A stretch of 57,707 nucleotides of DNA, the filler included, from Sphacelaria rigidula (taxonomy: Eukaryota), in NCBI GenBank assembly GCA_964200075.2. It is 8 parts of 8 records of this genome, joined end to end, with 100 filler letters (N's around TTAATTAATTAA, not from the genome) between each part and the next. Parts side by side here need not be neighbours in the genome. Positions count along the whole stretch, not along the records: positions 50,583 to 57,707 come from CAXNAA020016366.1; 7 more parts are not named here. The stretch is one strand, 5' to 3'. Position 1 is the first letter of the stretch. Each line of letters opens with the position of its first letter. Positions 36,133 to 57,707 of this stretch are shown here, piece after piece. A model generated the notes under the pieces. It saw nothing but the letters and a program-made list of their open reading frames with translations. It made no database searches and had not been told where the DNA came from. Made by a program: the position numbers and the translations under genes.

Positions 36133-36452
36133 CATCGTTTGCCCATGCATTCAACATAGTGTGTAAAGTGACGTCACGAAGTCACCGACGGTCAGGGGTA
36201 CTCACCATACCCAAGAGGTACTCTATACTCAAGTATGACTGAGAGTGGTTACTCAGTATTTGAGTAGAGTATTTGAGGCCGTACTCAACGTACTCAAAAT
36301 TTGAGTAGAGTATTTGAGACCGTACTCGACGTACTCAAAATTTGAGTAGAGTATTTGAGGCCGTACTCGACCAACTCAAACGTCGAGTAGAGTAAATACT
36401 CAAGTATTTTACTCGAGTACTCAAAAGTACATACTCTACTCGACCTACCCTT
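36133..36452. mobile_element. Second copy of the ~41-bp tandem-repeat element, inserted into the Gypsy integrase C-terminus
   Basis: Matches 4940-5100 and 6312-6397; ends TACTCTACTCGACCTACCCTTG against Gypsy sequence. Confidence 0.75.
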
Positions 36453-37632: not shown

Positions 37633-39553
37633 TTATTTTCGTTGAGCTTGGCGGACCACAGATTTCGACGGCATCGAATCATCCGCTTCACACGGACCAG
37701 ATACAGTCACAGCTCGCGCGGGCATAGTGGGAATATTGACCCAGCACGACAGCAAGTCACCCCATACGTTACGTTCACCCGAAACATGACAGACTGTGAA
37801 CCAATACTGGCGTAATACACCTTTCCACGCCTCCAATTGCTGTGCCAACGCCTTCGACACGGACGTCACCTATGCGTCCGGGTTGAAAATGTACGCTAGA
37901 TTGCGGTGATCCGTAAAAATGTGCACGCCATTCCACAATAGATGCTCGAGACGACGAAAAGTGCTCACGATAGCAAACCCTTTCTTGTCAATGGTTGCCC
38001 AACGCATCGGTGAAGCCTTGAGATTACCACTAAGGAAAGCCAGCGGTTCATGCGCCACGTCTTCAACCAGCAACCGTTATTGCATTTCTGCATCAGGCAC
38101 CTGCGTTACAAAACTACCCCAATGACACTTGGATGCATACGAAACCATCAGCACCTGGCAACCGGGGCGGGGATGGAACAGCGTCACGGCATGAGCCACC
38201 AGATACCTCGCTTCCGCCCATGCCTGCAGCCTGTCCTCCGCCTAGGATGCGTGCGGAATAACGCGGTTGTTGGCCACCCACTTCGTGCGCCTTGCAGCCC
38301 CCACCATGAGTTCTTTTGGAAAAACGCACAAGGGCGCCACTACTGCGGCCATACGTTGCAACGAGGTACGCAACCAGTTCATTGCGTGCAGGAATTGCAT
38401 TAGTTCCGCTGCTGTTTCAGGACGCCGCATGTCGGAAAAACCTTGCAAGCGGACCGGGTCATGCGAGACGCGGCCGTGTGAATATACTTTCCCACACCAC
38501 ACTAATGTACTAGCTAAAACGGTACACTTGCGGGCAGCTGCAAACAGAGCAACACTCTCTAAGCCAAGATTTAAGCCAAGATTGCATCAAGCGTATCCAA
38601 CAGTTCGTCTTCCGTATCCGCGAAGAAAATACATCATCCACCCAGATCTTGCATTTCAAGCCATCCAAAAGGTCTAACATGACACCTTGAAAACAGGAAG
38701 TAGCATTTAACGCGCCTTGCGGTACTCGTTGCGGGGTAAACATGCCAAACGGAGTCGTGATGGTGAACATCTCTTGCGCCTCTTCGGCCAACGGCATCTG
38801 CCAGTACCCCTGTAGGAGGTCCAACTTACCGAAGCATCGCGCGTTCAACAGGTCTATCATATCGGATTCCTGATTGGGCATGACACCCGGCGACTTCTCC
38901 ACCTGATCATCGACGGCTCCGTAATCGCTGACAAGGCGGAAAGAGTCCTCCTTCGGCACCGACATCGCTGGACTGGACCACACCGCCTGTAAATTCCTGA
39001 ACACCAACCCAAATGCCACAAGAGCTACCATGCAAGAAGCTGACCAACTGGACTTTACCGGATCATACCTCCTCAGTTTTTCTTTCACCGCGACCGCCCC
39101 TGGCTTCAGTGCAACCCCTATGGGTTCCACGCGCGCAGGGGGATCACCAATCAGCATACGACGAAACGTGTTCACGTGGCGATACAATATGCCACGCAAG
39201 CCCTCCGCGTTTGAAACGTTGAGGCCATTTGCCACAGGATCCGTCACGCTTTCCTCCAGAGCAGCCATTCGCGCGGACTCCTCTTCTGCCGGCTCCATAA
39301 CCATATCGGGGTCACGCTCCACTAAGCGTTCCACCGCCTCATCACGCTCCTCAGACACCTGCCCCCCCGCCTCCTGGAGAGCATTGACCGACACGCTCAC
39401 TCTGCGACTGGCCAAAAAAGCAGGCGTCGCGACACTCGAACCGGGCGACGGCATTTGCGCTTTTAGAAACTCTAACAGCCGATCATACGAGTCGACTCCG
39501 AGTTCCCGAAGCGCCGGTAAGCCCAACAGAACGACACCATCCGTCCCCGGCAT
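37633..39553 (-). pseudogene. pol: Gypsy reverse transcriptase and RNase H (disrupted)
   Basis: WSSPAMSVPK..FRLVSDY..FGKLDLLQGYWQMPL..RVPQG..WVDD; WCGKVYS; EPLAFLSG..FTDHRNL. Confidence 0.92.
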
Positions 39554-39587
39554 GATCGCAGACGATATCGGGGGTCATTGCTGACCC

Positions 39588-41097
39588 TCAGGTCATCCTG
39601 AACGCCAACTGTAGGGGAATCGTACGCTCCGTGACATTGGCACGTTGCTCCGATGCGGTGATGGCCTGCCGCGCCCCGAGCGAAAACGGGATGCGGATTT
39701 GCTCACCAGGAAGTAGACGCTCCAGCATCTCCACAATCAGCACCGACACGCTCGTGAAGTGGGCGCCTGAATCGAACACAGCGTTGACCGATATGACTCC
39801 CCGCGACCGTTGATTTGGGAGATGTGACTCTGCAGGAATATATGTTTCTTGATACTCGACCGGCACCTGCTCCGCCGACTGATTTGTCGTGATCCCCACT
39901 TGGCACCACGGCTGCGCATGCGGCGCAGGCATAGACGCCCCCGCTGGGGTAACCGGCAACACCGGCGGGTGCGAAGCCCCGCCCGCAGAACCAAATTGCA
40001 GCGGTACTCCGGCCGACGCAGCAGCGGATCCAAATTTCAGCTGAAATCCGGCCGGCTCAGCAGCAGGCGTCTCACCTTGCTCCGCTGCCGGCGGCGCCGG
40101 CACCGAGCCCGACACTTGAGTGGTCGGTCCCACCTGCACCGCCCGTTGCGGAGCAGCAGCCCCTGCGGCTGAGCCAGACCCAGAACCGGACCCCTGCTGA
40201 CGCCACCGCCGTTGCTGCTGCTGCTGCTGCTGCTGCTGGTAACTCGACTGCACACCTCCGCCGCTGGAGGATCCGCCTCCGCCACCACCCCGATGACCTT
40301 TTCCTTCTTTGTGATTGCGAGGGCGCGCGGCACGTGCCTGCCCAGACTCCCCCTCGGAAGGCGTTGGGCACTTGCGTGCGTAGTGGCCTACCTGGCCACA
40401 CTGAAAGCAAGTGATGTTGGTGGCGGCACTGCCTGTGAAGTTTGACCAGTGGTTACGCGAGCTCGAAGATTGCGGCGACGAAGTGGATGATTTCCCGAAT
40501 ACTTCAATACTCCGCCATGCCTGAGCCGCAGCCACCACGGTACCCATAACTAAGTACGGATCTGACTTCCAATTATTTTGGTGCTTTAATTGCACAAGCA
40601 CGGCCTGTTTGAATTCCGCCGGTGCCAGACCCTCCACCATCGCTTTCGTGATCACCGCAGCGGGCCTGGACGGAATCCCCCATCGGAGGAACGATAAACC
40701 ATCTCGACGTTGGGTTTTTCTGGGGAAATGTCTCCAACTTTCCCATGATTGGCTTCACCCTCTCATGCATGCTCTTCCCCTTGTGGTTCATGGCGACAAC
40801 CTTCGCCACGGCCGCGGACGCCTGGGTTAGCTCTACCTCAGCGCCCGCCGTATGCCCTGCATGCTTCTCGATCGCTGCAGCCAATTGCAGAGGCGTTATT
40901 GTGTTCTTCTCCTGGAATGTTCGCGCAAAAATGCGTTGGAGGGGGGTAGGCACGAGTTGCGCCATGGATACCACTTGATGCCTTACCGCACCCCCCGCAC
41001 TCGCATGCTCCACCCGCTTCTTGTATTTCACATACTTCGTATAAAACGAACGAGAAGCACACTCAGAATACAAATTTCCGTAACTGGGCGACCGCAA
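39588..41097 (-). pseudogene. gag: Gypsy gag with zinc knuckle and aspartic protease (frameshifted)
   Basis: CFQCGQVGHYARKC; NAVFDSGAHFTSVS; split over ORFs 40573-41097 and 39588-40655. Confidence 0.85.
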
Positions 41098-49789: not shown

Positions 49790-50598
49790 TTAAGTTAAGT
49801 ACTGACACATCAGTCACGACAACTTGTTCGTTGACCGTTGACCTTCGAGAATAGTTCAATGGCAATAGTACAGTTTGCTCTTTTGGTGTGTCATCGCGGA
49901 AGTCTCTAGCCCCCATTTCCAAAGCATGGCGTCACATTTCGAAGTCGGCGTTAGGGGAACGCCGGCATGCATTTTCATACAGCATTGGATAATACCGCCG
50001 CTCGTGGGTGGTCTAAATTATAAACGGTACATCTTGAAAGACGGTTAGGACGGGAGATTGCGGGTCGTAATTTCGGTAGATGGATGTGGATGGGTTCAGG
50101 TATTTCCTGAAAAGGTACAGTATCGCCTAAAGAGGTACAGTATCTGACTTACCGTTGTTGGAGGCGTGAGGACGCGAACAGCAAACGGAAATGTGTTTGA
50201 CACGGATCGACTCGGTACAGGAGTAGTCATCATCATCCAACCGGCGATATATCAAGGTGTAGAGCGTGTAGCCGGGAGAGATGGGGTGATTTCCTGAGAC
50301 CAAGGAATTGTCCCGAAGAATGGGGGGGGCGTACTCATGTGTTGCTTGCCTAAGCCCAAGTCGTGTGACTATTGACCACGCATCCCTTTCGAGAAGAATA
50401 TCGAAGAATAGGAGGGGGGGGGGGGGGGGGGTACTCCTTTTTTGCTTGCTTTAGCCGCCCACCCATTTACCATCGAAGAAGGNNNNNNNNNNNNNNNNNN
50501 NNNNNNNNNNNNNNNNNNNNNNNNNNTTAATTAATTAANNNNNNNNNNNNNNNNNNNNNNNNNNNNNNNNNNNNNNNNNNNNTTGTCCCCTTGGGGGG

Positions 50599-50859
50599 AT
50601 GTTGATTTCTTAACCCAGGGCCCGGCCAAAAAACCCCCACCTTTTCCCCCACCCGCCCCCCCCCCCCCCCGCACAAGACGTATGTGCGAATACCAAGCCT
50701 TTCATCCCATTTTTTTTCCGCCGTGAGTTACCGGCGACGGAGCATTTCAGAACAGATTTTCGGAACAAAATTGCCAATAACTCACGGAGAAAAATAAATG
50801 GGATTGAAGGTTTGGTATTCGTGCTTATCCAAGGTTATGCGCGAAAAACAAATCAACAT
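50599..50859. mobile_element. Palindromic MITE-like inverted repeat
   Basis: GCGAATACCAAGCCTTTCATCCCATTT..CCGTGAGTTA vs TAACTCACGG..AAATGGGATTGAAGGTTTGGTATTCGT; outer ATGTTGATTT/AAATCAACAT. Confidence 0.7.
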
Positions 50860-51814
50860 GCTCTAACTGAGCCAACTCCAAAGATTGCCATAAAATTGTC
50901 GCTCAGGATACCGGAGATGGTCGAGGGACCGTGCCAACATGACGGTGCCATGACACAGCGGAAGTGTAGTCTCCGGTGTCGGTGATGTAGGATCTATTCA
51001 ATCGGACATATCCACCACTCGGTTGGCCATAACGCTACGGTTCTCGTCAGCACATCGCGGCAAAGTCCGCAGCCATGAAAGCGCGTCATCGGACGTCTCA
51101 GGTTTTGACATGTATCAAGTTGTGATGTTTGTTTCGTCAATCGATTGCAAATCCGTCGTGAGATGGGCCGTTGGGTGCGTGTCGTTGCTGAGAGCGACAA
51201 GTATAGGCCAGGTGGTGGTCGCTGTGGTTTGTTTTTCGCCGTTGGCGTAAGCACGGATGCAGATGAAAGAGCCTCCGCTCTGTATTATTCGTTCGTTCAA
51301 GCCGCGAGCTACTCCCCGTGTAGATGTGTGAAGCGGGTCAGGACTGGGAGTCTGTGCGTGTCGCTAGATGAATTTGAAAAGGGGACTTCGGAAGGAAACA
51401 TCAGCGATCAGAGGGTTTGCACTACTCTTGACCAGCAGAAAAGGCGGACCGTAGTACTGGTCTCCTGAGCCTCGAGTAGGACGTCTAGGGAGTGGGGAGC
51501 TGTGCGTTCCGCGATGTTCGCTACGATGAACACACATATCATTAGGCAATGGTTTTCCGTGTGGGAGATCCTGTGCTGTCGAGTTTAGATATCCTCGCCG
51601 GAGTGATTACCATGCCGCGAAGCGATCCCCACGTAACTACAAAGCTGTGTGTCGTTCGCGGTGTAGGATATTCGACGATTCCATGTTGCGATGATCCCAA
51701 CGTACTGGTCGTATCATATAAAGGGGGTGACTCGTCCCATTCAAGTTGGTTTTGCTCTTTAGGTCACCTGAGATCCCGTTTTCCCTCTCTTCAACTACAC
51801 AGGTCCTTCCTGAA

Positions 51815-54697
51815 ATGGCACCGACGGATTGTGACTTCCTGCTTACTCTGTATCGATCGGCTGGTTCTAAGGCTACCTTGGGTAACTGGGGAACGCATGC
51901 CGACCTCTCGGATTGGAAAGGAGTAGGAGTCAGCGACGAAGGCCGCGTGGTCGAGCTTTTTCTTGACCACAGTAGAATCCAAGGTATTTTGAACCTTATC
52001 CTGGATCCAGGATTGAGGTGGTCGTGAGAGTGGCCCGCTTGGTAGCCGACCAGCGATGAAGTTGGACATCCGAGCGGTCACTAAAACTCGAGTACCCCCC
52101 GTGTACGCGTTGGTTGTTGATGCTGTCGTTCGTCGGTGGTCCCAGGGTGCTTCCTGTGGTGTTTCAGCGACTTAATTGTATTGTATCGTTCGCTGTATCG
52201 TTTGGCGTTTGGGCCTCCATAACTTCTGTACTTTCTCTGTTGAGTCTCTGCCGATATTAACCTGTGTTTCCGTGCGTTGTTTCCACTCACGGTATGAGAG
52301 CTCACCCTCGACATTATGCCGCCGGGATAGATAAATGGTAATGTATCCCCATGGTCTTGACTTCCTCATCTCTCGGGGAGGAATGCATGTTCTGTTCCGG
52401 AAGATCGTCTCCACCTGAAGTCACGTTGCCGGGGCAGGGTATTTGCAGTTGTCCTTTGTCGATGTTTTTTTCGCCCCTCAGACTTGACTTGTGTGTCGAC
52501 CCCACATGTTTTTTCTCCACTTTGCTTCGGCCAGGATTGCCGCGTGTTTCATCTCTCGTACGTCTATCTTGTGACCATATCGAGATGCTCGAGGAATACA
52601 TTTTCACGCCGTGTTAGTCAAGTCGACACACGGTATCGGTACGTGGTCTGTCCGTGCACCGTTAGTGTACTCGTCAAAGCTACTCGGTACCTGTTTATCC
52701 CATCTACTCACCGGCTCCTTGAACATGCGCCACCCAAACCCCACAAAACATTTGGGAATTCCACGTGCCTCTGCTACGCGGATAACGTCCGCTGTCGCTT
52801 AGTCTGGAGGACTCTGATGTGTCGGTTGTTACTCTATGCAGAGTTCTCGATCACGAATCCGTCCCGCAGGGTCCAGTAGGCTAGGTGAGTGGCTTCATTG
52901 CTATCATGCGTCCACTCTCGATTTTTGTAGCCTTGCCTGGGGAAACGTCGCGAACGCTGTATTTATTTAGCCTTCCTCTGTTTTGCGACACCAAATGAAA
53001 GTCGTGCGAGCTTGTGGTCTATTGAACACGAGTTTCGGCACACTCGATGTTCGATAACGCTACTTCAGCGTTCCCGAAAACCTCGGACTCCTGGAGGCAT
53101 CCATTACCCTCACCGAGCGCACGGACATGATACCACTGTGAAATTACACACATCCGATGTACTTCGATCCGTTTCAAACACTTTGCGGGCGAAATTCCGA
53201 ATTGTGGGTCAGCTGGGCGAGCTGGGGAAGTTTTCCCTCTACAAAACCCAGGAGAGCAACGAGTCCCCTGGACGAATAAAAGATATGGCGATGTGTCCAT
53301 TGGACGAATAAATGTGTGTAATGATGAGTCACTTGGGCATATGAACGTGTATGGTAGCAGGGGCAGTATTGGAGATTCACGCGATAGCGTCAAGTTGTGG
53401 TCGGCTGTTGTCTCGCGGATCTGTGTCTCGTCTCCGGGTAGGCTCCGGGTTGGCGGGACGCATTCCAGTGGGTGTGACTGCAATCCACGCGTGTTTTGGA
53501 CACCATGCAGGCGGAATTCCAGACTCCCTTGGTCAGCTCAGCAACCTGCGGACGCTAGACCTCCCCCACAACCAGCTAAGCGGTGAGTTCCTGGGGACAA
53601 ATGAACGTGTATGGTAGCAGGGCCGGTATTGGAGATTCACGCGATAGTGTCAAGTCGTGGTCGGCTGTTGTCTCGTGGAACTGTGTCTCGTCTCCGCATA
53701 GGCTCCGGGTTGGCGGCACGCATTGTAGTGGAGGTGGAAAACTGATGGGACTGCAATCCACGCGTGTTTTGGACACCATGCAGGCGCCATTCCGGACTCC
53801 CTTGGTCAGCTCAGCAACCTGGGGACGCTAAGCCTCGTCGGAAACCAGCTGAGCGGTGAGTTCCTCAAGACAAATAAACGTACATGATAGCAGGGGTAGT
53901 ATTGGAGGTTCACGCGACAGTGTCAAGTTGTGGTCGGCTGTTGTGTCGTGGAACTGTGTCTCGTCTCCGGGTAGGCTCCGGGTTGGCGGAGCGCATTGTA
54001 GTGGAGGTGAGAAACTGATGGGACTGCAATTCACGCGTGTCTTGGACACCCATGCAGGCGCAATTCCGGACTCCCTTGGTCAGCTCAGCAACCTGATAGC
54101 GCTACGCCTCTCCATGAACCAGCTGAGCGGTGAGTTCCTGGAGACAAATGAACGTGTATGATAGCAACGCCGGTATTGGAGGTTCACGCGACAGTGTCAA
54201 GTTGTGGTCGGCTGTTGTGTCGTGGAACTGTGTCTCGTCTCCGGGAAGGCTCCGGGTTGGCGGCATGCACTGTAGCGGATGTGAGAAACTGATGGGACTG
54301 CAATCCACGCGTGTTTCGGACATCCATGCAGGCGCAATTCCGGACTCCCTTGGTCAGCTCAGCAACCTGAAAGCGCTACGCTTCTCCATGAACCAGCTGA
54401 GCGGTGAGTTCCTTGGGACAAATAAACGTGTATGGTAGCAGGGGTAGTATTGGAGTAGCAGGGGTAGTATGGGAGGTTCACGCGATAGTGTCAAGTTGTG
54501 GTCGGCTGTTGTCTTGGAACCTGGTCTCGTCTCCGGCTAGGCTCCGGGTTGGCGGGGCGCATTTTAGTGGAGGTGAGAAACTGATGGGGGAACTGCAATC
54601 CACGCGTGTTTTGGACACCATGCAGGCGCAATTCCGGACTCCCTTGGTCAGCTCAGCAACCTGGGGACGCTAATCCTCTTGCAAAACCAGCTGAGCG
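51815..54697 (+). CDS. Brown-algal LRR protein (ROCO/LRR-GTPase-type N-terminus), 5' part: N-cap exon 51815-51983 and LRR exons 53511-53582, 53784-53855, 54058-54129, 54332-54403, 54626-54697
   Basis: N-cap MAPTDCDFLLTLYRSAG..NWGTHADLSDWKGVGVSDEGRVVELFLDHSRIQG|gt (phase 1); five 72-nt phase-1 exons GxIPDSLGQLSNLxxLxLxxNQLS with atgcag/gtgagt ends; C-terminal domains not in the contig. Confidence 0.92.
53188..53260 (+). pseudogene. Decayed LRR pseudo-exon
   Basis: GCGAAATTCCGAA..GGTCAGCTGGGCGAGCTGGGGAAGTTTTCCCTC (GEIP..GQLGELGKFSL) with a frameshift, broken splice sites, and a following intron-like GAGTCCCCTGGACGAATAAA. Confidence 0.6.
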
Positions 54698-54766
54698 GTG
54701 AGTTCGTTGGTTCAAATGAATGTGCGTGGTAGCAGGGCCGGTATTGGAGGTTTACGCGCTAGTGTC
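53325..54766 (+). repeat. Tandem array of exon+intron cassettes, periods 273/274/274/294 bp
   Basis: Introns are near-identical copies (GTGAGTTCCT..ATGAACGTGTATGGTAGCAGGG..GGCTCCGGGTTGGCGG..ACTGCAATCCACGCGTGTTTTGGACACCATGCAG). Confidence 0.97.
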
Positions 54767-55116
54767 TGTTTGTAGCTTCGTGACCCCGTGAGAGGATGGG
54801 GTACAGACTCGACTCAGATAGTCGATCAATGCACACGACTGCGATAGTCGATCAATGGACACGGCTGACTGCCGATCAAGATGAGGTAGAAATGTATATA
54901 AAGCTTTGTTGTTGAAGAGGGAAGGAAGGGGAGTGGGCCCTACGGGGGCCAACGTACCAAGATGCGATAAGCACCACTCACGTATGTCCAGTCACTAACA
55001 TCACAATATAGTCATTCCGCGTAGTAGCCGGAACTCAAACACGTATGTCACTAGACTGTTGTACCTTACCCTGACTAGGTGTATCCTACTGAACACCGCA
55101 GGCCATCCTACGAACA
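54767..55116 (-). mobile_element. 350-bp LTR (3' LTR of a minus-strand element) inserted in the intron after LRR exon 5
   Basis: TGTTTGTAG ... CTACGAACA terminal inverted repeats; adjacent C8 at 55117-55124 is a polypurine tract on the minus strand; the intron consensus stops abruptly at 54766. Confidence 0.8.
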
Positions 55117-57707
55117 CCCCCCCCATAGACTGCGCGTGTCAAAAGTATGGTTCATGGACCATACTTGGTGAACATAACTACTCATCGGAAAAAGAACTCT
55201 TCCGCTCACTGCGCATTCAACAGGTGTATCCTCTCAAGAAATGAATTTCATCAGCAACCGTAAAACGAATGCAAATCCCGGAACTGGTCACTTCTTTCAA
55301 CGACTATGGGACCAGCCAACAATGAAAGACATCGGCATATTTCTTTTCACACCAAGACAAAAACAGGGATGGATGAGCTGTGTGTTTTACCACACTGTAG
55401 CTCCTGATGGTCAACCCAAGCGAAACGCAAGTCAACTTCTTCAACTGTACTAGCCCATGCCCCTTACAAAAGCGTGGGTGGTCGTACTTAGCATTCGAGT
55501 AACCTGCACTACGCACGCGAGACCAAGCTCCTAGGTAACATATATGAATCCACACAACACAGTGCAGTTGACAACTTTCGAAACTCGGATCACATGTTGC
55601 AAAGTCCACTTCACAGTCAGTCAGCTACCTACAGTACAAGAATCAAATTTCAAAATTCAAATTCAGCAATACATACTACAGTAGTGCCTACGTCATCAAG
55701 CCAAACTAGATACTCACTACATCTACTTAAGCCCTTATTCCCCCTCGGTGACCGGCGGAGCAAAGCAGCTCAACGCTTCCAGACAAAACACACGATCAGA
55801 ATCACCCCCCCCCAATTCTTGCTTATCAAAGTCTTTTCCCCCCCGCTTCTAGGCCACGGGGAAGGAGTGCTGCATTCATCATCTTTCCCCCATAGCGGGG
55901 AGATTCGCAGCGAGGGACTGCCTTGATCCTGGTTGGTCACCGCCCTCCAAAACCAACCGTCACGTCATGCTCGTCTCAGCCTTACAGACAGCACCTGTGT
56001 CGGACAAAAAAAGATTTGGGAGGCTCAGCGTCTCACATATCGTGCAGACTCGAGGGGAATGGGCAGTGGGACAACAGACAGGAAAACTATTAATATCCAT
56101 GTTACTCAGGCGCGTCAATCACCAACCGATGAAAATACTTTTACCACGTACCGTACTGTGGTGTCGCGTTACGGTAGTCGCGAACGCACACCCACATGTT
56201 ATACCCGGATTCAGCACTATTATTTCAACTCTTCACTTCTCCATCACATACCACATATGGATCAAACGGCAGCTCGGCCGCTACCATCCTGGTTGCATGA
56301 AACATTACACTTTGCCTTTTACATGCCGTGCCAACATGTGTAGACCCGTGTGGAATTCGCCTGGCCAGCCAACCGAGCAACGACCAGCTCCCATATGGGT
56401 GATTCAATGCACTCATCTTTTATCATGCTGTGCACATGAACCGCATCTCGCTCATGAAGTCAGCTCTATCTATTAGCCGTCAAGTATGTGTCATATGCGT
56501 TTTGCTGACCTGTAGCACAGGAATTTCGTTTGTGCCCACAGTCACTCTTACGATATTATCATGATCAGGCCAAGCTACTAGTATTGCGCTATACTCAGTC
56601 CTCGCTCCTACCATAACAACGAAGTTTCGTCAACCGATCCAGTGAAGAAGCCGATGCCTCGCGAATCCTACACCTCTCGGAATAATAACAACTTTTTCAC
56701 TTAGATGTCGAGTGTCGGAACTCACCTCAAATTTTGTGGTCTCAACCATCATTCACCCGCGTACCCCTCTGCGGAACATTTTGCCGACATCACCCTCTAG
56801 TCTAGTCAGACAGCAGTGCCCCACACGCCTGTACTCACCAAGGCGACGAACAAGGTTCCACCTCAACCGATCGAGTAAGGGTGTGGTGCCCCACAGTCCT
56901 GCGCTCACCGGGGTGGCAACAACGTTACACATAAGCGTTGAGTTTCGGCAACCATGTCAAAACATGTTCTCAACACTCTTCACGCACTTCACTCTGTGCA
57001 ATTTTACCGACACCGTTCCACAGTCAAGTCAAGTCGCGGTGCCCCGCTCTCCTCACACTCACGAAAGCGGCAGACGATTTTCTTCATCAAACGAGTCAAA
57101 CAAACGCGCAAAGTAGGTCTGCACTCATCGAGACAGAAATTCGTCAAACATGAACACTGAGTTTCGTTGTCCATATCAAAAATATGATCTCAGCATTGTC
57201 CAGGAATGTACAACATCTCGATTCACCTGGGCAAGAACCTTTCCTTGGGTACATGAATCACTATCTGCATGACGGTCACGAACACTCAAAACATAAAAAC
57301 AAAGAGGTATTTGAGTCATGCATAGGTCTCATACCATCATTTTTCAAAAGGCCTCTACGTCCACTTCCGAACATACTGAAGAATCTATACTACCCGACGA
57401 CCCTACTGCCATCGCTGTATCTTCATTTTCTCCTGTATTACAATCCTGATATGAGTGTCCTTTTTTTTCCGCATCTCATACAATGTCATTCCGGACAGTC
57501 ACGCGCGAAGTGTGTTGTTTGCTTCCGACAAATCCAACACCACCTCTCCTTTATAGAACCATTTTTTTTTACGCCCATCAGGTTTTGAATCCCCCGTATC
57601 TCCCGAGGTCCCTTGTAAATTCGTAAATTCCTTTTTCGACTTCCCTTGCCACTTCACGGGGGTCCTGGCCAGTTTCCTGTGTCATACGGAAATATTTCCC
57701 GTCTTTC
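55117..57707 (-). mobile_element. Highly decayed Ty1/Copia-like internal region
   Basis: Two zinc knuckles CWICRKQTTHFARDC and CMRCGKK-GHSYQDC (~57440-57545, with a stop and a frameshift); RNase H-like GYSNAKY..KKLTCVSLG near the PPT. Confidence 0.55.

Follow-up and report, generated by a model that had tools for sequence, protein, structure and literature searches.

Tandem type I leucine-rich repeat exons in Sphacelaria rigidula with amino-acid changes concentrated at five codons

Introduction

In Ectocarpus, type I leucine-rich repeat (LRR) exons are 72 nucleotides (nt) long and encode repeats in the register GxxPxxLxxxxxLxxLxLxxNxLx (Zambounis et al. 2012, PMC3341825). The same study describes inactivated exons lying within introns, intense exon shuffling and LRR-only loci with type I exons; it assigns positive selection to sites 15, 17, 19 and (20), on the repeat's concave face, and hypothesises somatic recombination, drawing an analogy with the variable lymphocyte receptors (VLRs) of lampreys. 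For four brown algae, Teng et al. (2024, PMC11378527) describe an exon of 72 bp, with the repeat encoded by nucleotides 3-71, list selected sites 14, 16, 18 and 19 in a 23-residue numbering, and report LRR-only loci as a possible reservoir and LRR exons as alternatively spliced (both papers are represented here by parts of their text). Here we analyse an LRR exon array in a window of 57,707 nt from Sphacelaria rigidula (assembly GCA_964200075.2; eight parts joined by filler letters, of which positions 50,583 to 57,707 come from CAXNAA020016366.1). Judged from its sequence, the array is of the brown-algal type I LRR exon cassette kind, a phenomenon that has already been published, with its pattern of diversifying selection, for genes regarded as candidate immune receptors of brown algae.

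The term 'gene conversion' is absent from the text of PMC3341825, and both 'gene conversion' and 'synonymous' are absent from that of PMC11378527; in the available parts of the two papers, neither uses introns as a neutral yardstick. An initial annotation, made from the sequence of the window alone, had noted identical framework codons beside strongly differing ones in five exons, and had offered either diversifying selection or targeted micro-conversion from donor cassettes as the cause. We followed up these proposals by comparing the exons with their own introns.

Anatomy of the LRR exon array

Tandem Repeats Finder reported a 274-nt period in 4.6 copies at 53476-54766 (positions throughout are those of the window). 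The array consists of five tandem units of ~274 nt on the + strand, at 53511-54697, each made of a 72-nt exon and an intron of ~200 nt (Table 1). All five LRR exons are 72 nt long with the same borders (atgcag/G...G/gtgagt), and their common translation is G[GA]IPDSLGQLSNL-xx-L-x-[LF]-xx-NQLS; that is, one 24-residue plant-type LRR per exon (G.IP..LG.L..L..L.L..N.LS), in the type I register GxxPxxLxxxxxLxxLxLxxNxLx and not the offset type II. Each exon opens with bases 2 and 3 of a Gly codon and closes with base 1 of the next codon and, because the phase is equal at both ends, any exon can be duplicated, lost, skipped or interchanged in frame. The sole notable length difference among the array introns is a 20-nt tandem duplication between exons 4 and 5.

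As the initial annotation had stated, the codons for DSLGQLSNL are identical in the five exons: the 27-nt stretch occurs in five copies with 0 mismatches, at 53522, 53795, 54069, 54343 and 54637, with 0 copies expected by chance (100 shuffles). This identity is not in itself beyond chance: the third positions involved number only ~9, and variable columns make up 23% of the introns.

Divergence of the xxLxLxx patch

Comparison of the five cassettes, and hence of 15 nt in variable codons, revealed a marked excess of change in the 21-nt patch that encodes the xxLxLxx strand. Pairwise differences amount to 87 of 210 in the patch (0.414), against 199 of 1770 in the array introns (0.112; 177 ungapped columns) and 16 of 510 in the other 51 nt of the exon (0.031), which puts patch divergence at 3.7 times that of the introns. 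Of the 21 patch columns 13 are variable, as are 40 of the 177 intron columns (Fisher p = 3.6e-4), and all 195 intron windows of 21 columns (maximum 0.243, mean 0.100) lie below the patch. The variable sites are not a continuous 21 nt. They are codons 14, 15, 17, 19 and 20 of the 24-codon repeat, with Leu16 encoded by CTA in 5/5 exons and Leu18 by CTC in four and TTC in one. Counted by parsimony, these five codons took 20 steps on 15 nt (1.33 per site), compared with 45 steps on 177 nt of intron (0.254 per site; binomial p = 6e-8) and 5 steps on the 57 exon nt outside the five codons (0.088 per site).

The five patch variants and the codon examples given in the initial annotation are exact on translation, and its observation by eye that the patch varies more than the introns holds in every intron window. 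The hypervariability it noted is thus confirmed and, for so small a sample, statistically solid, with the qualification that the excess falls on five separate codons rather than along a continuous tract, and is lacking between exons 3 and 4.

Replacement and synonymous change

Nei–Gojobori counting gave a proportion of nonsynonymous differences (pN) of 0.634 for the five variable codons. For the 19 framework codons, pN was 0.019 and the corresponding synonymous proportion (pS) was 0.081. Four-fold-degenerate third positions inside the patch show 0/36 pairwise differences, and framework four-fold sites show 12/90; because this framework rate matches that of the introns, the introns can fairly serve as a neutral yardstick. 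By codon position, the variable codons show differences in 37 (first), 28 (second) and 18 (third) of 50 comparisons. The patch excess is entirely amino-acid-changing; this limitation to replacement sites is evidence against the patch being a local mutation hotspot, an ancient retained sequence or the product of neutral decay.

The pattern favours diversifying selection, of which it has the signature, and so supports one of the two causes put forward initially (pN 0.634 in the variable codons against framework pS 0.081 and intron divergence 0.112, with four-fold sites in the patch unchanged). All four published selected sites (15, 17, 19 and 20) are among the five variable codons of 24, a coincidence with a chance probability of ~5e-4 by our own arithmetic. 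Selection, rather than a targeted mutational process, would then lie behind the excess. Published models and textbook LRR structure would place the variable residues on the concave face, a surface that may bind ligands, and the gene may act in pathogen recognition.

Exchange between units and search for donors

Two-state informative sites in the units (n = 14) conflict heavily: 47 of 91 pairs are incompatible by the four-gamete test, with a minimum of 6 recombination events (Rm 6). A three-base haplotype alternates along the array: it reads CCG in the intron before exon 2, in that before exon 4 and in the remnant that follows exon 5, and GTA in the introns before exons 3 and 5. Because site conflict is as common in the introns as in the patch, the reticulation belongs to whole units and not to the patch; what the units exchange, through unequal crossing-over or conversion, are whole stretches, introns included.

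The suggestion that exons 2 and 5 are mosaic is borne out as far as their shared GGGACG goes, but there is no mosaic signal specific to the patch, because the introns conflict equally (47/91), and common descent suffices to explain the shared motif, given CGGACG in exon 1. The site-conflict check on the five units likewise yielded a recombination signal, but not one restricted to the patch. A search for each 21-nt patch on both strands of the window, allowing up to 3 mismatches, returned no donor copy, the only matches being those of exons 3 and 4 to each other. With nhmmer, we detected no opposite-strand cassette or foreign fragment in the window, and no other cassette on either strand beyond the array and one decayed unit. 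Targeted micro-conversion from donors, the second cause proposed at the outset, is thus left unsupported in this window, which holds no patch copy and no further cassette save that decayed unit.

Contigs from public sequencing runs

Public sequencing runs contributed assembled contigs only, which are unable to show rare somatic variants; no listed run is on record as RNA, X5 is only guessed to be RNA, and one run bears the label of an algae metagenome. Runs X1 and X2 contain exact-match contigs of the flanking locus. In X1, X2 and X9, the non-repeat region 51700-53320 (including the first coding exon and first intron) also occurs in copies ~87-92% similar, either paralogues or divergent haplotypes, one of which is short of 1137 nt of the array. 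The array is skipped over 1137 nt in an X2 contig and over 266 nt in an X9 contig, which means that array length varies, and the whole locus seems to be duplicated with different cassette numbers. Summed depth in intron bins, which is not a copy number, is 8-16 times that of the non-repeat part of the locus, suggesting a multi-copy cassette family. Among the 40 of 505 difference rows displayed, the exonic ones all lie in patches (53548/53550, 53837-53842, 54674 and 54681/54684). Gaps in the coverage of the array, such as those at the exon 3-4 bins of X9 and of X5, were not used as evidence.

Contigs of X5 cover bins of the first coding exon and of LRR exons 1, 2 and 5 and scarcely any intron bins; most bins of the long first intron are at a depth of 0 to 4, a weak hint of that intron. 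One X5 contig connects 51981 with 54624; with the cut placed two positions further to the right, the joint has GT..AG ends and corresponds to 51983/54626, which passes over the other LRR exons in frame. This contig comes from a paralogue, as 19 other letters in 181 indicate. Loose ends of X5 contigs at 53583 and 53783 resemble neighbouring LRR exon ends. What these contigs support is the prediction of splice sites in the family; they are no evidence that this copy is expressed.

An assembly artefact was considered as the source of the array and rejected: the repeat units differ consistently, and two runs hold the exact-match contigs, which concern the flanking locus, the rows for the array being mostly not displayed.

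Flanks of the array

The putative first coding exon lies ~1.5 kb upstream of the array and ends one base into a codon, which is the phase of the LRR exons. The conserved Asn of its first repeat is replaced (DHSRIQ). Using phmmer against 1.84 billion representatives, we obtained 637 matches at E ≤ 1e-3, which include short peptides that open likewise (MAS.DRD...GRVVEL..LQG); the best named relative is a partial protein of Ectocarpus sp. 12 (51% identity). A Pfam scan of ten among the best 150 matches identified LRR proteins in 10/10, some of which also bear bacterial Ig-like, HSP70 or peptidase domains. By itself the first coding exon had no Pfam match, a word-index protein search of it against longer proteins found nothing significant among 5 candidates, and a protein-based locus search of metagenome contigs gave 595 pattern stretches with 0 confirmed. 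The LRR exon pattern with the patch codons left free had 0 matches in metagenome contigs. As a separate observation, the 56-residue module of cap plus first LRR recurs up to 12 times per protein in the 2000-2750-residue proteins P0003, P0004, P0008 and P0034, which additionally carry bacterial Ig-like, HSP70-like or sulfatase-modifying-factor domains.

The decayed cassette was recovered both with the nhmmer profile of the unit (E 3.4e-7, 53162-53257) and with that of the exon (E 2.2e-6, 53184-53264). Its lesions comprise a lost acceptor AG (tgcGG), a 2-nt deletion and a lost donor GT (AACGAGT).

Downstream of exon 5, the break in the sixth intron copy coincides exactly with the start of a very high-copy repeat. 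Its depth in summed contigs is 58,000-150,000 in four runs, compared with ~100-200 across the X1 bins of 51700-53253 that are not repetitive, and many loose contig ends with unlike flanks meet at 54767 in X1, X2, X5 and X9; the repeat has no second copy in the window and no Pfam domain. No Roc, Ras, COR, kinase or other signalling domain was matched by Pfam in 84 open frames of at least 110 residues across the whole window, and neither a signalling domain nor ROC-COR nor a terminal exon was found in 48 frames of 35-109 residues from 54700 to the end, where short exons could escape. The reach of this search is set by the repeat, which cuts the array at 54767, and by the end of the window 3 kb further on. 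The locus is probably a truncated or LRR-only copy: its array is interrupted after exon 5 by the high-copy repeat, and the search of the window detected no signalling domain.

Table 1. Coordinates of the LRR exon array and its flanking features in the window
Feature	Position	Strand	Description
Putative first coding exon	51815..51983	+	ATG, 56 codons, LRR N-terminal cap W.GV...GRVVEL, then GT donor
Long first intron (inferred)	51984..53510	+	GT at 51984, AG at 53509-53510; encloses decayed unit
Decayed cassette ('unit 0')	53162..53266	+	Inactivated LRR exon and tail of upstream intron
LRR exon 1	53511..53582	+	GGIPDSLGQLSNL-RT-L-D-L-PH-NQLS
Intron, LRR exons 1-2	53583..53783	+	201 nt; member of repeated intron family
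LRR exon 2	53784..53855	+	Patch GT-L-S-L-VG
Intron, LRR exons 2-3	53856..54057	+	202 nt
LRR exon 3	54058..54129	+	Patch IA-L-R-L-SM
Intron, LRR exons 3-4	54130..54331	+	202 nt
LRR exon 4	54332..54403	+	Patch KA-L-R-F-SM; 2 nt off exon 3, both amino-acid-changing
Intron, LRR exons 4-5	54404..54625	+	222 nt; 20-nt tandem duplication at 54435-54475
LRR exon 5	54626..54697	+	Patch GT-L-I-L-LQ
Sixth intron copy, first ~74 nt	54698..54771	+	nhmmer E 2.1e-12, profile positions 2-74; homology ends there
Very high-copy repeat, start	54767..55000 and beyond		Contig depth, loose ends

Other features of the window

An Rfam scan over 50600-57707 gave no match inside the array. A hairpin-like stretch at 50685-50823 on the - strand has plant miRNA precursor matches far below threshold (33.9 bits against a gathering value of 230, and 33.4 against 83) and is probably a mere inverted repeat. 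Runs of N at 50483-50526 and 50539-50582, with ttaattaattaa between them and long G and C homopolymer tracts beside them, lie 1.2 kb upstream of the gene start.

Retrotransposon remnants occupy 38513-40754 on the - strand, where an RVT_1 frame (E 3.6e-8) stands next to a zf-CCHC frame (E 1.5e-6). A 41-nt unit, partly self-complementary and with a consensus that starts TACTCAAAA.TTGAGTAGAGTA, forms short tandem arrays at 4384-4621, 5059-5414 and 36250-36394, and looks like a dispersed mini-satellite or MITE-like family. A (GTA)n microsatellite of ~115 copies at 21062-21402 is followed at 21681-21793 by 16 copies of the 7-nt unit AGGTACA.

Weighing the explanations

We consider it probable that the locus is a type I LRR cassette array with drifted introns and with diversifying selection at five concave-face codons, a reading that builds on the observed anatomy, the rates and the confinement of the excess to replacement sites. 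On this model, the array would have grown by unequal recombination between homologous introns of ~200 nt, after which introns and synonymous framework sites would have drifted to a difference of ~10% and purifying selection would have held the framework residues. Replacements would have been fixed many times faster at the exposed β-strand positions 14, 15, 17, 19 and 20 on the concave face, and this fast replacement would represent diversifying selection for new binding surfaces.

Several points weigh against this model. Some codons differ by two or three bases between units whose introns differ by ~10%, so that a very high replacement rate is needed (the uncorrected ratio of patch pN to neutral divergence is 6 to 8), and block replacement would look alike. 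The introns are reticulate and the units exchange sequence, so intron divergence may understate the age of the units. Exons 3 and 4 differ at 2/21 patch positions and their introns at 18/179, so that their patches are no more diverged than their introns and the excess is not universal. The four-fold invariance in the patch could reflect nucleotide-level constraint on the exon; a miRNA family targeting LRR exons is reported in PMC3341825. The locus may also be dead, given a first exon without the conserved Asn, an array cut by a repeat and no terminal exon found, and five cassettes with 15 variable nt are too few for a codon-model likelihood test.

A different history, possible although we think it rather unlikely, is that exon shuffling and concerted evolution shaped the array, with the patches drawn as old variants from a pool shared by the family. 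Paralogous loci would be the source of imported whole cassettes or long tracts, crossing-over or conversion would homogenise introns and framework, and selection would do no more than keep the patches from homogenisation. The heavy site conflict in the introns (47/91 pairs, Rm 6) and the alternation of CCG and GTA between units are what such exchange would leave; conversion tracts, however, cannot skip single bases, yet the interleaved four-fold sites of the patch differ in 0/36 comparisons and Leu16 is CTA in 5/5 exons. Intergenic recombination between type I LRR loci is described in PMC3341825, and the raised depth of the intron bins (8 to 16 times that of the non-repeat locus, not a copy number) and the array-length variants fit a pool of this kind. 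An old patch should nevertheless have diverged at its four-fold sites too, and framework four-fold sites and introns are alike, at ~0.11-0.13, as a simple common age predicts; no opposite-strand cassette or foreign fragment is present in the window.

Much less likely, in our estimation, is targeted diversification, in which a dedicated process would write short variable tracts into the β-strand codons, whether somatically or in the germ line. This could be micro-conversion templated by reservoir cassettes (compare lamprey VLR and chicken immunoglobulin genes) or codon-directed mutagenesis. Multi-base codon differences on a nearly identical background would be expected of such a process, and the exonic differences of paralogous or allelic contigs do sit in patches (among the 40 of 505 rows displayed); but the differences respect codon position and spare synonymous sites, which fits selection and not known mutators, and the invariant A of the Leu16 CTA speaks against adenine-directed mutagenesis. 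Somatic recombination is hypothesised in PMC3341825, whereas PMC11378527, in the part available, states that somatic recombinant loci have not been reported. In this window there is no donor patch, the array is a complete, spliceable germ-line segment and not an incomplete scaffold, and the sole reverse transcriptase is of retrotransposon type, with a gag zinc knuckle beside it, ~14 kb away on the other strand. One form of this idea, which we hold to be equally improbable, is that, instead of arising by stepwise point substitution, the patches are short tracts copied, in germ-line or somatic cells, from LRR cassettes that serve as a reservoir across the genome. Multi-base codon changes on a ~90% identical background, reticulate units and a multi-copy intron family are compatible with it and, if true, it would amount to a working case of the VLR-like adaptive diversification that was put forward for brown algae as a hypothesis in 2012 and has never been demonstrated.

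It is scarcely credible that the patch is unconstrained in a dead, neutrally decaying gene fragment, or that it mutates faster as a local hotspot: the locus does look truncated, its first coding exon lacks the conserved Asn and one neighbouring cassette has already decayed, but unconstrained sequence cannot outpace introns and the patch is at 3.7 times their value, a hotspot would also have struck the four-fold sites of the patch (0/36), and an open frame, the two splice sites and a conserved framework persist in all five exons (pN 0.019 against pS 0.081).

Comparison with known systems

Like the ROCO and LRR-only arrays of Ectocarpus, as described in the available parts of PMC3341825, the array has one 24-residue LRR per 72-nt exon, an inactivated intronic exon and a variable array length. 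It also shares the replacement excess at positions 15, 17, 19 and 20, with position 14 hypervariable here as well. Unlike the Ectocarpus type I arrays, it has no cassette on the non-coding strand, and no ROC-COR was found in the window. Sites 14, 16, 18 and 19 of PMC11378527 correspond to 15, 17, 19 and 20 in the numbering of the array. The relevant part of that paper gives intron phase 2, whereas the array introns, by the usual definition, lie after the first codon base; the geometry is equal.

The repeat consensus of the array is the same as that of the plant-specific 24-residue LRR class, and a word search with one repeat gave 2 matches among 19 candidates, both of them plant LRR proteins with LRRNT_2 and LRR Pfam domains. 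A replacement excess at the solvent-exposed xxLxLxx β-strand positions is known in plant resistance-gene LRRs. To our knowledge, exons and repeats do not correspond one to one in plant LRR domains, which prevents the shuffling or in-frame skipping of whole repeats.

In lampreys, the germ line carries incomplete VLR genes, and their completion from flanking cassettes takes place somatically. The array resembles VLR genes in that LRR modules provide the variable binding surface and cassettes could serve as a reservoir, as PMC3341825 draws the analogy in the part available. It differs from them in being a complete run of spliceable exons, with no donor cassettes or patch copies in the window. It is also unlike a diversity-generating retroelement: the window contains no pair of template and variable repeats, the adenine of the Leu16 CTA is invariant in 5/5 exons, and the only RVT_1 match, which adjoins a gag zinc knuckle at 38513-40754 on the - strand, is retrotransposon-like.

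By itself, then, the array is an ordinary example of a published phenomenon and adds little. It is at the same time a clean, small case in which introns and framework four-fold sites provide an internal neutral clock of ~0.11. An intron-calibrated comparison across a brown-algal genome could separate selection on point changes from the import of cassettes, and could test the hypothesis of adaptive immunity in brown algae more sharply.

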